A DNA stretch of 39,290 nt from an uncultured Desulfovibrionaceae bacterium. Lineage in GTDB: Bacteria > Desulfobacterota > Desulfovibrionia > Desulfovibrionales > Desulfovibrionaceae. The notes under the pieces were generated by a model. The model searched no databases. It had not been told where the DNA came from and saw only the letters and a list, made by a program, of their open reading frames with translations. Below, in pieces: positions 3,735 through 8,370 of this stretch. Within the stretch, counting starts at the first letter, position 1. Every line of letters begins with the position of its first letter. The stretch lies in contig CBDTYX010000001.1 in assembly GCA_965364745.1 (NCBI GenBank), positions 1-39,290 on the forward strand. Direction: 5' to 3'. A program made the position numbers and the translations under genes.

Positions 3735-3780
3735 CCGGAACTTCTGGCGAGCAAGCCGGATTTAATGCCTGCGAACCCCA

Positions 3781-3821
3781 AAAGGCTTGCGGTATTCACC
3801 GTAAGCCTTTTCATATTTTTT
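3781..3821 (+). terminator. rho-independent terminator of the antiporter gene
   Basis: A 12-bp stem aaaggcttgcgg/ccgtaagccttt with one G-U pair and loop tattca is followed by a T-rich tract. Confidence 0.65.
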
Positions 3822-4078
3822 CCGGAAGGTGTTTTTGCCGGTGCGGCGCACAGCAAAAGATTATTTGGGAAGTTCTAAAAAACAATAAGGAAAACAGTAT
3901 ATTATAGCAACGAATTTCGTGGCGGATGCAAACGTCATCTTTTACGGATTAAAATTTATGCATGCTTGCGCCTGGGCGCTTTTAGCTCTTGCTGCGGCTA
4001 AATCATTTTGTTATTATATAAAAATATATGTTTTGGCTAACCCTTAAGTAACGATTATAGTTATTGGAGAGAATTCAT

Positions 4079-4750
4079 ATGTCGGATGTACCTTCTGATG
4101 CCTCTATGGAGCAAGTGCGCGAACTTTTGATGGGCACCCATCTTAAGGATATGGAAAATAGGATTAAGCGGCAGGAAGAGCGTCTTTTAAAAGAGATTGC
4201 GGACACGCACGACAGCATAAAAAGTCGGGTGGAATCTCTGGAGAACTTTATGAAGAGCGAGACCGCGTCTTTGCTGCACCGTTTGCAGGAAGAGCAGGCG
4301 GAGCGCAGTGCGGCTCTAAGGGATGAACAGCGGGAGCGCAGCGACGACGTCAAGAATGAGCAGCGCGAGCGCAAAGAAGCTTTGGCGCAACTGACCGCGG
4401 AATTTGCCGCGGACTTAACCGCCAGGGAGGAAGCTCTGGAGCGCAAGCTCACGGCCCTGTCCGGCACGCTGGATTCCGTGGAGCGCGAGTTGCGTCAGCT
4501 TCTGCTTACGGAAAACGCCAAACTTTCTTCTGAAATGGAAGAAAAATACAAGGCCGCCCTCAACGCGCTGGCGAGCACCGCTCAGCAGCTGCGCCATGAT
4601 CTGGTTTCCCGTTCGGCCATGGCCGGCATATTTACCGAAGCCACCGTGCGCATGTCCAGCAGCCACTATGCGGAAGAAAGACCCGGCGACAATGTTGCTG
4701 CGGCCCCGTTGGAGTCCGCCGCGTCCAAAAAAAAGGAAAAGAACTCCTGA
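4079..4750 (+). CDS. coiled-coil protein of unknown function
   Basis: ATG 4079 is preceded by GGAGAG (4066-4071). The 223-aa protein is highly charged and helical (MSDVPSDASMEQVRELLMGTHLKDMENRIKRQEERLL...). It carries a duplicated EQRER motif and has no TM segment. Confidence 0.7.
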   Translation: MSDVPSDASMEQVRELLMGTHLKDMENRIKRQEERLLKEIADTHDSIKSRVESLENFMKSETASLLHRLQEEQAERSAALRDEQRERSDDVKNEQRERKEALAQLTAEFAADLTAREEALERKLTALSGTLDSVERELRQLLLTENAKLSSEMEEKYKAALNALASTAQQLRHDLVSRSAMAGIFTEATVRMSSSHYAEERPGDNVAAAPLESAASKKKEKNS

Positions 4751-4767
4751 CCTGCTGAGGCGTGAGG

Positions 4768-6744
4768 ATGGATGAACCCAAGACGGCCGGGCACGAAGGG
4801 GCCGCTGAACAGCTTTCTGAAGCGCAAGGCTCTTCTTTGCCGCCCGCTGCAAGGCCGGATAACGGCCGGGCGGACGTTGCGGCTAGCGCTCAGGATCATG
4901 GCGGACAGGCTGCGGACCGGCCGGAGCCCTTAGAGGAAGAGCAAGGCCGGAGTTCTCCCTGGGCGGATGTGCCCGCGGCGCCGAGCGATGCGGAACTGGC
5001 CCGGTTGCGGGAGCTTTTATTTACGCGTGAACTGGCGCTGCTTGATAAAATTCAGGCTTCTCTGGACAGTTCGCGCTATAATACCCAAAAAGTCAGCAAG
5101 GTCATTGCCGAGGCCATTTTATTGCGCTCGGAAAAAGATGACCACCTGAACGTGGCCCTTGAACCGGTAGTGGCTGATATCGTCCGCAACTCTTTGCACA
5201 AGCGCCCCACGGATTTTGTAAATGCCCTGTTCCCGCTCATGGGCCCGTCTATCCGCAAATCCATTTCCGAGTCTTTCAACGCCATGCTGGGGTCTTTCAG
5301 TAAAAGCATGGAAATGGCCTTTTCCTGGAAAGGGCTGCGCTGGAGGGCGGAAGCCCTGCGCTCCGGCCAGCCCTTCAGTGAAGTGGTCATGCTGCATACG
5401 CTGGTCTATCGGGTGGAGCAGATATTTTTCATCCACAGCGACACCGGCCTTGTGCTTTCGCATCTCATCCACGAAGGCGCCGGAGCGCAAGATGCGGACA
5501 TGGTTTCGGCCATGCTCACAGCCATTCAGGATTTTGCGCGCGACTGCTTCACCTCCGGCAATGAGAGTGATCTTGAAGCCCTTCGCCTCGGCGAGTTTAC
5601 TATTTTTATTGAGAAACTAGGTCCGGCTTATATTGCCTGTGTGGTGCGCGGCACGCCTCCCCCGACCCTGCACGAACAGCTGCGTTCCACTTTGGAGCTG
5701 ATGCTGGGGGCCTTTGCTGAAGATCTGGGCAAATTTGACGGCGATACTTCCCATTTTGAAGGCGCAGCGCGGTATCTTGAAACCTGCATGGTTTCAAGTT
5801 ACGTGGATGACGATAAAAAATTGCCGCTGTGGGCAAAAGCCCTGCCGGTATGTGTAGTTTTGTTGGTGGTGGGCGTATTCGCCTTTTTTAAAATACAGGC
5901 CACGCATTTTGCAGATACCAGAGAGTCCGCTTTAGGCGTTATGCGCTCCGAACCCGGCCTCATGGTGATTAATGTTTCCGAGAACCGCACTCCGCCGTGG
6001 GACGCCGTTGTGCTTAAAGATGCGTTGGCCGTGGACCCAACCGTATTTTTGCAGGAAAGAAACTTCTCCGCCGACCTGTTCAATTTCAAAGTTATTCCCT
6101 TTATTTCTTATGACCCGTCCATTGTCGCCGAGCGGGTCGAGTCCGAAATAAAACTTCCGGACACCGTGACCATGCGATTCGACAAAGGCACGCTATACTT
6201 GAAGGGCACAGCGCCCATGCGCTGGATAGTGGAAGCCCGCGAGCGGGCGCGTTCTCTGCCGGGTGTTGAAAGCATTGATATTCGAGAATTGAGCGACCCC
6301 AATATGGCGCAGGTTACAGCCTGGATTAAGGAAGTGGAGAGCGCCGCCATTGAGTTCCCGTTGGGCGGAGATCTGCCTGTGCCCGCGGACCAGCCCAAGC
6401 TGCAGCATATCGCCGATATTTTGGTGTCTTTGGAAAAAACAGCCAAAGAAATGGGCTTCGACGTCACATTGACCATCTACGGCCATGCTGATACTACCGG
6501 AGGAGAGAAGCGCAATTATGAAATAAGCCAGGCGCGCACCCGTACTGTAGCGGCGTTGTTGTACGCCAGAGGCTCCAGCATGCCTATCGCCATGTACGGC
6601 ATGGGGTCGCAATACCCGAAAAATAGAGGGGATTTGACCGAAGAGGCGCGTCTCGCCCATGAGGACCAGGCCAGCCGGCGCATTGAGCTGCGGGTGCATC
6701 TTGCCAGGTCCGTCGCCCCGGATTCTGATGCGATTTTGCCGTAG
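4768..6744 (+). CDS. bitopic membrane protein. It has a cytoplasmic Roadblock/LC7-like region, a single TM helix, a periplasmic BON-like segment and a C-terminal OmpA/MotB-like peptidoglycan-binding domain.
   Basis: ATG 4768 lies 17 nt after the previous stop. The TM helix is LPVCVVLLVVGVFAFF. The BON-like segment is VTMRFDKGTLYLKGTAPMRWIVEARERARSLPGVESIDI. The OmpA_C signature is LTIYGHADTTGGEKRNYEISQARTRTVAALL...ASRRIELRV. The Roadblock-like call for YRVEQIFFIHSDTGLVLSHL...DADMVSAMLTAIQDFARDCF...FTIFIEKLGPAYIACVVRG is inference. Confidence 0.75.
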   Translation: MDEPKTAGHEGAAEQLSEAQGSSLPPAARPDNGRADVAASAQDHGGQAADRPEPLEEEQGRSSPWADVPAAPSDAELARLRELLFTRELALLDKIQASLDSSRYNTQKVSKVIAEAILLRSEKDDHLNVALEPVVADIVRNSLHKRPTDFVNALFPLMGPSIRKSISESFNAMLGSFSKSMEMAFSWKGLRWRAEALRSGQPFSEVVMLHTLVYRVEQIFFIHSDTGLVLSHLIHEGAGAQDADMVSAMLTAIQDFARDCFTSGNESDLEALRLGEFTIFIEKLGPAYIACVVRGTPPPTLHEQLRSTLELMLGAFAEDLGKFDGDTSHFEGAARYLETCMVSSYVDDDKKLPLWAKALPVCVVLLVVGVFAFFKIQATHFADTRESALGVMRSEPGLMVINVSENRTPPWDAVVLKDALAVDPTVFLQERNFSADLFNFKVIPFISYDPSIVAERVESEIKLPDTVTMRFDKGTLYLKGTAPMRWIVEARERARSLPGVESIDIRELSDPNMAQVTAWIKEVESAAIEFPLGGDLPVPADQPKLQHIADILVSLEKTAKEMGFDVTLTIYGHADTTGGEKRNYEISQARTRTVAALLYARGSSMPIAMYGMGSQYPKNRGDLTEEARLAHEDQASRRIELRVHLARSVAPDSDAILP

Positions 6745-6809
6745 TCCCGGTCCGGTTGCGGCGTGTTATTAAAATTGAACCCGGGTTTGGCCGCGTATTC
6801 CAAATAACC

Positions 6810-7307
6810 ATGATCAGCAAAAAAATCTGTTTGCTCGGCGCTTTTTCCGTGGGTAAAACCTCCCTTGTCGAGCAATACGTTCATTCTATTTTTTCCGATA
6901 AATACCTTTCCACCGTGGGTGTTAAAATCAGCAAAAAAATCCTAAGCCTGGACGGGCGGGACGTGACCTTGGTGCTCTGGGACATGGAAGGACGCGATGC
7001 CTATGTGGATATAAATGTCTCTTACCTGCGCGGGGCCATGGGCTTTTTTGTGGTCGCCGACGGCACCCGCGCCGAAACTCTTGACGCGGCCATCGGCATT
7101 CGCAAGCTCGCCCTGGAAAAAGTCGGATCCCCCATCCCCAACTATTTGTTGATAAACAAAGCGGACCTTGTCGATAGCTGGGAAATTACAGAAGCCTCGC
7201 TCAAAAATGTCGAGCAGCAGGGCATTAAAGTGCTGCACACCAGCGCCAAAACCGGCCTGGGGGTAGAGGAAGCGTTCTCCTCTCTTGCCAGAGACATGCT
7301 CGGATAA
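6810..7307 (+). CDS. Ras/Rab-like small GTPase
   Basis: The 165-aa protein from ATG 6810 carries G1 GAFSVGKT, switch I YLSTVGV, G3 WDMEG, G4 NKAD and G5 SAK. Confidence 0.8.
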   Translation: MISKKICLLGAFSVGKTSLVEQYVHSIFSDKYLSTVGVKISKKILSLDGRDVTLVLWDMEGRDAYVDINVSYLRGAMGFFVVADGTRAETLDAAIGIRKLALEKVGSPIPNYLLINKADLVDSWEITEASLKNVEQQGIKVLHTSAKTGLGVEEAFSSLARDMLG

Positions 7308-7428
7308 ATCACTTTTACATCCTCAACCGATTCAGTTACAAATGCGTATCGGCCATGTGCGTCGTTTTTGAGGCAGTTCGGGGGGGAGTCCAGGCGACGC
7401 GGCTTTCAAAGTTTTAAGGAATAAGCTT

Positions 7429-8370
7429 ATGGTTGACCAGGAACAGCTTGTCCTCAACATCTTGCGATCATTAGACGTCGCGGTCTTAAAGCGGGTGGAG
7501 CCCAGAAAATACGAGTTTCTCGGCGAAGCCCCCGATTTCTACAATGAATTTTTCCCTCCCAACGAGGGGGGGGCGTGTAATGCGCCTTGGGAATACTCGG
7601 CTATGCTTGAGTTTTTTCTTGAAGACGCGGAGAATTTTTTCAACTGCGGCGAGCCGGGCGAGTATTCTTCCGGGGTTTGGCAGGAAGACGGTCAGACTGA
7701 TGAGGAGGCGGGTCTGCTGGCCGTGGCTTCAATGCATGACGGCGTGGAGGTCATTATCATCCGCCTGCTCAATGACGACTACCGCCAGCGGGTGGGTATT
7801 TTGCGCAAGGCCCGGGAACAATTGCTGGAAAACCGCAAACTGGCCACCACGCTTAAGGAATTCAAGGTCAAATCGCAGCGGGACGGGCTGACCAAAATTC
7901 TCAATCGGGAAACATTCATGGAAATTTTGCGGAATAAAATTTCCGCCATGCAGCATAAGGTTATGGCTGATGAACTCGTCAGCGAGCCGCCGTCCCTGCT
8001 GATGATGGATATTGATAATTTTAAAAATATTAACGACACTTATGGGCACTTATGCGGCGACATGGTTTTGCAGGGACTGGGGCAGTTGTTGACCGAACAG
8101 TTGCGCCGTTCCGACATCGTCGCCCGCTATGGCGGCGAGGAGTTTGTCGTGCTTATTTTGCGGGGCACTCCGGAGCAGGTTTACAAAATCGCCGACAAAG
8201 TCAGAGCCGCCATAGAGACGAATAATTTTGGCTGGGCGCCCAAAATCACGGTCAGCGTCGGCTGCGCCACCTATATTCCCGGTGAAAGCGTGGAAAATTT
8301 CATTCACCGGGCGGACGACGCCATGTATGACGCCAAACACAGAGGCAAAAACATAGTCTGCGTGCGTTAA
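7429..8370 (+). CDS. diguanylate cyclase (GGDEF) with an uncharacterised N-terminal domain
   Basis: An AAGGAA SD precedes the start. The catalytic RYGGEEF motif is intact, and an RRSD (RxxD) I-site lies 5 residues upstream. DIDNFKNINDTYGH and DDAMYDAKHRGKN are present. The N-terminal ~150 aa plus a coiled linker are unassigned. Confidence 0.85.
   Translation: MVDQEQLVLNILRSLDVAVLKRVEPRKYEFLGEAPDFYNEFFPPNEGGACNAPWEYSAMLEFFLEDAENFFNCGEPGEYSSGVWQEDGQTDEEAGLLAVASMHDGVEVIIIRLLNDDYRQRVGILRKAREQLLENRKLATTLKEFKVKSQRDGLTKILNRETFMEILRNKISAMQHKVMADELVSEPPSLLMMDIDNFKNINDTYGHLCGDMVLQGLGQLLTEQLRRSDIVARYGGEEFVVLILRGTPEQVYKIADKVRAAIETNNFGWAPKITVSVGCATYIPGESVENFIHRADDAMYDAKHRGKNIVCVR

Follow-up and report, generated by a model that had tools for sequence, protein, structure and literature searches.

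Small GTPases of the Ras superfamily occur in prokaryotes as well as eukaryotes, and one prokaryotic family, Rup, was defined by Wuichet and Søgaard-Andersen in 2014 (Genome Biol Evol 7:57; PMC4316618). Group 1 Rup genes occupy a four-gene neighbourhood (PMC4316618). Their partners are a coiled-coil cytoplasmic protein (DUFY), a protein that joins an unknown domain (DUFX, for domain of unknown function) to an inner-membrane helix and a C-terminal OmpA domain, and the product of a fourth gene, a diguanylate cyclase/phosphodiesterase or a histidine kinase, with an invariant Gln in its N-terminal region (PMC4316618). Since Group 1 Rup proteins lack the Gln of the G3 motif, the output-protein Gln was suggested to act in trans (PMC4316618). 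Table S2 of that paper gives 27 members with the order DUFY>DUFX:OmpA>Rup, among them Ava_0879, Npun_F1891, NIDE0273, sce5816 and one from Alteromonas. Rup GTPases were classed there as uncoupled from MglB homologues, and as of 2014 no Rup had been characterised experimentally (PMC4316618). Our literature search by name, topic and the locus tags of the listed members found no later experimental work on Rup. Here we analyze a stretch of 39,290 nucleotides (nt) from an uncultured Desulfovibrionaceae bacterium (GenBank assembly GCA_965364745.1, contig CBDTYX010000001.1), referred to below as the window, whose positions 4079-8370 hold a four-gene locus of this kind.

The locus consists of four co-directional open reading frames (ORFs), g1 to g4, separated by intergenic gaps of 17, 65 and 121 nt, just as a first-pass annotation made from the letters alone had described. 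All features given below lie on the + strand. g1 (4079..4750) encodes a 223-amino-acid (aa) cytoplasmic coiled-coil protein, the DUFY of Group 1 Rup systems; g2 (4768..6744) a 658-aa bitopic inner-membrane protein, their DUFX:OmpA; g3 (6810..7307) a 165-aa Rab-like small GTPase, the Group 1 Rup itself; and g4 (7429..8370) a 313-aa protein in which a module-specific N-terminal domain precedes a GGDEF diguanylate cyclase. The order in the window is thus coiled-coil DUFY, DUFX with transmembrane helix and OmpA, a Rup without G3 Gln and a signalling output, and homologues of the window proteins come from Nostocales and Nitrospirales loci, taxa that also appear in the table of the 2014 paper. Since the window matches every architectural feature of Group 1 Rup, the locus belongs to that already described kind: it represents the Group 1 Rup small-GTPase signalling module in a Desulfovibrionaceae-type form. 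The first-pass annotation had taken the architecture to be undescribed; the gene order is in fact that of the Group 1 Rup neighbourhood (PMC4316618). The window differs from the published set in that the 27-entry list holds no Desulfovibrionaceae member, the output domain has an Arg at the 'invariant Gln' position, and DUFX is predicted here, from structural models, to contain a longin/Roadblock-like domain. This predicted domain, the Arg, a Phe at Ras position 12 of the GTPase and the conservation of a motif common to g1 and g2 are what is new here. We think it somewhat more probable than its opposite that the longin/Roadblock-like domain of DUFX controls the Rab-like GTPase, which in turn drives the output N-terminal domain and synthesis of cyclic di-GMP (c-di-GMP).

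When one genome per GTDB species was scanned, at least 553 loci emerged, and 80 of them, from at least eight phyla, were kept for analysis. Their six-frame ORFs were searched with the window proteins, and neighbours were counted only where the flank sufficed. The 80 loci come from Desulfovibrionaceae, Desulfobulbus, Planctomycetota, Deferribacteraceae, Betaproteobacteria, Acidobacteriota, Nitrospirales, Longimicrobiales and Nostocales, among others. A g1 homologue lies directly 5' of g2 in 78/79 loci and a g3 homologue 3' of g2 in 71/74. Further 3', a protein with the g4 N-terminal domain is encoded in 47 of the 61 loci whose downstream flank exceeds 3 kb; the other 14, mostly Pyrinomonadaceae, lack it though they keep the GTPase, and hmmsearch with all filters off found no diverged copy of the domain in the Pyrinomonadaceae loci. 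g1 to g4 are one conserved module, as had been proposed from the window alone, and the g1-g2-g3 order is its constant core in this survey. Full-length g2 homologues number in the hundreds at 45-60% identity (assemblies of Desulfovibrio, Desulfobulbus, Planctomycetota and Accumulibacter); those of cyanobacteria share about 30-33%. Used as a profile, the cytoplasmic region of g2 matches 5,922 clusters (50% identity) at E<=1e-3, and 2,263 at E<=1e-30. What we observe across these loci is gene content, conservation, predicted folds and residue patterns.

The g2 protein has one hydrophobic segment, at about aa 351-382, the only Kyte-Doolittle window above 1.6, and is therefore bitopic with N-in topology. 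The transmembrane helix (5827..5913, aa ~354-382) is preceded by DDDKK on the cytoplasmic side and corresponds to a helix at 354-394 in the AlphaFold2 (AF2) model. This full-length model, built on a 58-sequence alignment, has a mean predicted local distance difference test (pLDDT) score of 76.6, and its first 63 residues form a disordered N-terminus. On the periplasmic side, an OmpA_C-like peptidoglycan-binding domain (6298..6708, aa 511-647) is identified by both Pfam and Foldseek. The sole Pfam match in g2 is OmpA (aa 544-626, E 1.2e-8, 35.7 bits against a gathering cut-off of 27.2), and the Foldseek neighbours of the domain are Pal, OmpA, PorE and YfiB at about E 1e-6. Both the single membrane crossing and the OmpA domain had been called correctly at first pass. 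H573, N583 and R590 do not vary in either g2 alignment (26 and 58 sequences), nor does D575 in the smaller one. In solved OmpA-like domains, a conserved Asp and Arg bind peptidoglycan.

Foldseek also aligns this OmpA domain with ZorAB and MotB, and PADLOC gives weak matches to ZorB over the same domain (E 4.3e-5) and to the ZorA tail over the coiled coil of g1 (E 1e-4). Such matches could mean that g2 is a MotB/ZorB-type stator or anti-phage component and that its neighbours are unrelated passengers. The matches, however, cover nothing beyond the generic OmpA and coiled-coil stretches; no MotA/ZorA-like protein is encoded by the four genes, the transmembrane helix LPVCVVLLVVGVFAFF contains no Asp, and the conserved neighbours across many phyla are a GTPase and signalling outputs. 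This explanation is effectively refuted, and we assign it a negligible probability.

The cytoplasmic side of g2 holds the domain on which our preferred reading depends. In the full-length AF2 model, aa 203-321 (5374..5730) form a block with pLDDT mostly 70-93 in which the order of elements is alpha-beta-beta-alpha-beta-beta-beta-alpha, the Roadblock order (H203-211, E212-223, E229-234, H243-260, E271-274, E277-284, E287-295, H299-315, with H for helix and E for strand). The Roadblock/longin fold is a three-layer alpha/beta unit with five antiparallel strands, and the AF2 model of aa 203-321 has this arrangement. Since the OmpA domain dominated the Foldseek list of the full g2 model, where a longin-fold match to AP-1 sigma3 appeared at E 1.4e-4 amid OmpA matches, we made a second AF2 model of aa 64-352 alone, and the same domain order recurs in it. 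When this cytoplasmic model was searched against PDB, the top 50 of 50 Foldseek matches belonged to the longin/Roadblock superfamily, with E-values from 7.4e-5 to 5.1e-3 and TMt up to 0.70. The best is 9ddt_B (E 7.4e-5, TMt 0.70), and AP-1/AP-2 sigma subunits lead the list. Other neighbours among the top 50 are zeta-COP, Mon1-Ccz1 with Ypt7 (5ldd), Fuzzy-Inturned with Rab23 (9rs9), the C-terminal domains of RagA/C, LAMTOR subunits, Sec22b, TRAPP and an Asgard Roadblock. MglB in complex with MglA (3t12_C) is found at rank 40 (E 3.8e-3). YRVEQ and QDADMVSAMLTAIQDF are strongly conserved in the domain, and its central helix and first strand rank with the most conserved parts of the whole g2 protein. 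The models support a longin/Roadblock-like fold for aa 203-321 and make it a candidate GTPase-binding platform. A Roadblock-like fold had been guessed for this half of the protein at first pass, and the prediction bears the guess out; longin/Roadblock-like is the better label. A literature search found no earlier longin or Roadblock annotation of DUFX.

Several points weigh against a GTPase-regulating role for this domain and a cyclase driven by it. The cytoplasmic-only AF2 model has a mean pLDDT of 68.5, and its Foldseek matches score modestly (E 7e-5 to 5e-3). No PDB sequence matches the profile of the g2 cytoplasmic region at E<=10, and Pfam has no model that covers the domain, giving scattered sub-threshold matches only. 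The window g2 matches neither Pfam Robl_LC7 nor longin; among 24 family members, one matches PF03259 (Robl_LC7) at E 0.17 and one PF19036 (Fuz_longin_1) at E 0.082. Further along the module, the 14/61 loci without the g4 N-terminal domain mean that the output link is not universal, and the 121-nt gap between g3 and g4 could hold a separate promoter. The 2014 proposal for the output protein, treated below, is another such point. Moreover, longin and Roadblock domains have a PAS-like fold in common (PMC3521125), and the g2 domain could therefore bind a partner other than a GTPase. It might then bind a ligand or mediate dimerisation as a PAS-like module with no relation to the GTPase, which would be regulated elsewhere, for instance by g1; the kinship in fold, the modest Foldseek scores and the missing sequence signal would all fit. 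As general knowledge has it, Roadblock domains are also often dimerisation platforms. Yet 0/50 of the top structural neighbours are PAS or GAF domains, all being GTPase-associated or coat/longin platforms, and the g2 gene adjoins a small GTPase gene in 71/74 loci. We consider a PAS-like module of this sort unlikely.

Our preferred reading, in which DUFX acts on the GTPase, directs attention to g3 itself. g3 is a single-domain protein of the Ras family (PF00071, E 6.5e-29), of Rup and not MglA type. Its closest solved relatives are Rab8A, Rab32 and Rab1, and Rab23, the partner of Fuzzy-Inturned in 9rs9, is also among its top sequence neighbours. It carries G1 GAFSVGKT, T35, DMEG, NKAD and SAK, and GxxxxGKT, T35, DxxG, NKxD and SAK are conserved among 74 homologues. 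The statement at first pass that all five G motifs are present overlooked the missing catalytic Gln and Phe12. In alignment with H-Ras, the Gly12 position is Phe in g3 and in 71/74 homologues, and the Q61 position is Arg in g3. Gln is found at the latter in 11/74 homologues, next to E in 31, K in 14, A in 7, R in 5, D in 3 and S, M and T as singletons. Ras tolerates only Gly at position 12 for hydrolysis assisted by a GTPase-activating protein (GAP). Since Phe12 is combined with the lack of Gln61, general knowledge of Ras predicts that both intrinsic and classical GAP-stimulated hydrolysis are poor. Phe12 is not mentioned in the main text or in the Rup rows of Table S2 of PMC4316618.

g4 combines a module-specific N-terminal domain (7429..7863, aa 1-145), a candidate GTPase-coupled input domain, with a GGDEF diguanylate cyclase domain (7876..8352, aa 150-308). 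The cyclase assignment made at first pass is secure, with matches to PF00990 (E 2.1e-39) and TIGR00254 (E 3.4e-44). The translation reads RRSD-IVARY-GGEEF, with the RxxD I-site five residues upstream of the active-site motif, and judged by these motifs g4 should be an active diguanylate cyclase. By jackhmmer, the N-terminal domain is present in 57/80 loci, always 3' of the GTPase, and it is fused to GGDEF, HATPase_c, HisKA_3, hybrid HK-REC-Hpt or sigma54 AAA+ activator modules. A constant N-terminal domain with swapped outputs points to an input module and supports the cyclase as the output of the upstream genes, a role that had been suggested for it and that now appears plausible. L60, F63, W84, A100 and R129 are invariant in the domain. 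No invariant Gln column exists in its alignments of 23 or 58 sequences. The majority Gln of the consensus ILQKARE corresponds to Arg126 in the window protein and to Arg, Gly or Asn in its Desulfovibrionaceae-type relatives. This Gln is presumably the invariant Gln of the 2014 paper.

The 2014 authors proposed the output N-terminal domain as the GAP, with its catalytic residue supplied in trans (PMC4316618). DUFX would then be only an anchor, sensor or scaffold with no part in the nucleotide cycle. We regard this as clearly less probable than control by DUFX, and as a serious contender all the same. The GTPase indeed lacks the G3 Gln, and the N-terminal domain is always encoded near the GTPase gene. 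The domain has an invariant R129 in [IL]xKARE with the majority Gln three residues before it, and cyanobacteria and Acidobacteria encode a separate small QQ protein right after the GTPase gene. Against a GAP of this kind, the Gln is not invariant, as the residues at its position in the window and in the Desulfovibrionaceae-type relatives show, and, from what is generally known of Ras, Phe12 is expected to hinder a classical inserted finger. In addition, 14/61 loci keep the GTPase without the domain, whose fold cannot be assigned by sequence searches of PDB (profile, no match at E<=10) or Pfam (scattered sub-threshold matches only). The two proposals, a GAP in the output protein and a regulator in DUFX, are compatible and not mutually exclusive.

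The QQ protein is the product of a fifth conserved gene that stands right after the GTPase gene in 32/80 loci, with an invariant QQ. Its length is about 133 aa in cyanobacteria, Acidobacteria and Longimicrobiales; in Pyrinomonadaceae it reaches 292 aa and carries a PAS domain at its C-terminus. Examples of the gene, by locus and position, are L050:9220-9636, L042:9223-9624 and L038:9241-10119. The gene is absent from the window, and its conserved part has no Pfam family. The 'invariant Gln' idea may stem from this fifth protein, or the protein may be a separate GAP-like partner. Mutual homology of this small protein, the g4 N-terminal domain and the g2 longin/Roadblock-like domain was considered and rejected: hhalign gave probabilities of 0.4-1.9% with short helix matches. 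A visual impression of a PAS/Roadblock-like order of secondary structure in the g4 N-terminal domain stays unsupported, since hhalign found nothing significant.

With DUFX as the regulator, the module would work as follows. DUFX would cross the inner membrane once, and its OmpA-like domain would tether it to peptidoglycan. Its cytoplasmic side would present a helical region and the longin/Roadblock-like domain, and the latter would bind the adjacent Rab-like GTPase and set its nucleotide state or localisation, as an exchange factor for guanine nucleotides (GEF), a GAP or a platform. The GTPase would be slow at hydrolyzing GTP alone and would need partner proteins. Once active, it would engage the g4 N-terminal domain and so act on the GGDEF cyclase with its I-site, and envelope or positional information would be turned into c-di-GMP. 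DUFY would dock to the same partner through the motif it shares with DUFX, or would co-assemble with the DUFX helical region. In this scheme we infer the physical interactions, the direction of the signal and the assignment of a GEF or GAP role.

Two other prokaryotic systems pair a small GTPase with a protein of Roadblock-type fold. In MglA/MglB of Myxococcus and Thermus (3t12), a Ras-superfamily GTPase gene likewise lies beside a gene for such a protein. g3, however, is Rab/Ras-like, and Pfam finds no stand-alone Robl_LC7 protein among the four module genes. The predicted Roadblock-like unit sits instead inside a 658-aa peptidoglycan-anchored membrane protein and has no Robl_LC7 signature, and the top structural matches of g2 are longin domains, not MglB. 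The actinobacterial conservons (CvnA-D; mfp conservon) are multi-gene G-protein cassettes that unite a kinase-like sensor in the membrane (CvnA), a protein of Roadblock fold (CvnB), a DUF742 protein (CvnC) and an MglA-like small GTPase (CvnD). The 2014 paper itself drew this analogy (PMC4316618). They differ from the module, whose four proteins lack HATPase_c, Robl_LC7 and DUF742 by Pfam and include no histidine-kinase-like membrane partner. The module GTPase belongs to another clade (Rup), the sensor and the predicted Roadblock-like domain are fused in g2, and an enzyme of its own, equipped with a dedicated input domain, provides the output.

Eukaryotic longin-type Rab regulators (Mon1-Ccz1, Fuzzy-Inturned/CPLANE, TRAPP and BLOC-3) and Rag-Ragulator also join a Rab-like GTPase to a longin/Roadblock platform. 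The likeness is one of predicted fold only; a heterodimeric longin pair or GEF activity in the bacterial module would be conjecture. The module differs in its bacterial setting, in a g2 protein that is integral to the membrane and anchored to the wall, and in its outputs (c-di-GMP, kinase or sigma54). As to c-di-GMP signalling, the YfiB-YfiR-YfiN (TpbB) system couples an OmpA-like peptidoglycan-binding protein to a diguanylate cyclase. YfiB structures are among the neighbours of the g2 OmpA domain; the coupling of that system is nevertheless periplasmic, and it has no GTPase. In Bdellovibrio, MglA-Bd2492-CdgA links a small GTPase to c-di-GMP signalling. There, however, MglA serves as the GTPase, and its partner, a degenerate GGDEF receptor, does not share a cassette with it.

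The predicted longin/Roadblock-like domain of DUFX would be a concrete candidate for the missing Rup regulator, and would extend the principle of a GTPase with a Roadblock/longin partner from the MglA clade to the bacterial Ras/Rab clade. No prokaryotic relatives stand nearer to the Ras/Rab-type switches of eukaryotes than the Rup GTPases, and the eukaryotic Ras, Rab, Rho and Ran GTPases have been proposed to descend from the Rup clade. A tentative extension, which we would not bet on, is that bacterial Rup is natively paired with a longin/Roadblock platform in a wall-anchored, receptor-like transmembrane GEF/GAP that reports the state of the envelope to c-di-GMP, two-component or sigma54 outputs, and that the Rab-longin partnership predates eukaryotes. 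If so, the partnership did not arise from eukaryotic re-use of MglB-type domains. An analysis from 2012 regards longin-Rab pairing as a eukaryotic expansion of the MglB-MglA mode (PMC3521125). The variable outputs suggest a general route of signalling from envelope to cytoplasm through a G protein instead of phosphotransfer. The cassette is very widespread: it accounts for thousands of protein clusters and spans no fewer than eight phyla, and among its carriers the Nostocales cyanobacteria include genetically tractable members. Pfam has no model for its two core domains, the cytoplasmic one of DUFX and the N-terminal one of the output protein.

The remaining protein, g1, matches no Pfam or NCBIfam family and gives just weak coiled-coil-type matches. 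It has no hydrophobic or transmembrane segment, and its composition is of coiled-coil type, rich in E, L, A and R. Near its N-terminus is a motif (MEQVRELLMGTHLKDMENRIKRQEERL in g1; 4106..4186, aa 10-36) that g1 and g2 have in common. The g2 copy (4990-5064, aa 75-99) forms the start of the conserved helical region (4990..5364, aa 75-199), which consists of AF2 helices with block pLDDT roughly 50-80. The motif is kept in both families, with the consensus VRDILFGxQ..E.RF.RLEERL in g1 and LRSLLFGxE...L..L..RL in g2. Among 24 g1 homologues, R14 and G19 are invariant and L17 nearly so. R81 of g2 is invariant in the 26- and 58-sequence alignments and E88 in the smaller; E88, L80, L83 and L84 are nearly invariant in the larger, and F85 is nearly invariant in the smaller only. 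When the two family profiles were aligned with hhalign, the best local match was exactly this stretch (E 0.013), a marginal value because the stretch is short. The resemblance between the two N-termini spotted at first pass is therefore a property of both families.

Between the transmembrane helix and the OmpA domain, g2 has a periplasmic alpha/beta region (5959..6279, aa 398-504) of AF2 strands and helices with pLDDT above 90. It had been labelled BON-like, and this label found no confirmation: Pfam BON (PF04972) has no match in the window g2 and matches 1/58 relatives, at E 0.011. Foldseek aligns g2 with Rv0899 ('contains two separated domains'), which we take to be a BON+OmpA protein, over 275 columns with a root mean square deviation of 17.

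A strong terminator-like hairpin (3780..3811), with a 14-bp stem followed by a T-run, lies 3' of the upstream transporter gene and marks the 5' boundary of the module. Just 5' of g1 is a sigma70-like promoter match (4033..4061, TTGGCT-17-TATAGT, 9/12 matches), which is weak evidence, the number of promoter matches in that region being no higher than expected from shuffled sequence. The g1 ATG at 4079 has a good ribosome-binding site, GGAGAG, about 8 nt before it. Within the four genes, only weak terminator-like consensus matches were found, none with a long stem and a clean T-run. Alternative upstream starts exist for g2 (GTG 4762) and g3 (TTG 6756). Gene callers differ on the latter: the protein has 183 aa if it starts at TTG 6756 and 165 aa if it starts at ATG 6810. 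The 165-aa form agrees with the N-termini of homologues and with Ras numbering, and ATG 6810 has no clear ribosome-binding site.

Inside g4, codons 46-49 contain a G8 homopolymer (7566..7573), and the 39-kb window has no other G8/C8 run. In other samples, contigs that are otherwise near-identical have a G9 allele, which yields a 50-aa product (...NEGGGV*) and leaves a 255-aa ORF downstream. The 50-aa product occurs on at least 21 contigs, and the four whose DNA was aligned (L081-L084, around 1637-1646) are all G9; the intact 313-aa product occurs on 19 contigs. From sequence, this looks like slipped-strand, possibly phase-variable ON/OFF variation of the cyclase. Alternatively, it may be a homopolymer assembly error at low coverage.

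Some loci depart from the common layout. An Acidobacteriota locus has two tandem Rup GTPase genes after g2 (L078:2814-3983), and in one from a Deltaproteobacteria metagenome-assembled genome (MAG) the GTPase gene lies ~3 kb 3' of the g2 homologue, not adjacent to it (L012:7054-10114), a separation that points to an insertion between the two. In 12/58 members of the g2 family, the cytoplasmic part gives weak matches to Pfam DUF2884 (best E 8.2e-5), and the window g2 gives none. The DUFX cytoplasmic domain lies far from the N-terminus in P0030 (944 aa), P0299 (1148 aa), P0305 (1336 aa) and P0421 (1007 aa), for example at residues 737-1015, which implies N-terminal fusions to other domains in these long representatives. 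Some Deltaproteobacteria MAGs (L031:5676-7082, L032:4923-6227 and L033:5806-7791) have a much longer g2 homologue of ~1000 aa or more, and between it and the GTPase gene lies a second gene weakly similar to g2 (E 1e-17 to 1e-25).

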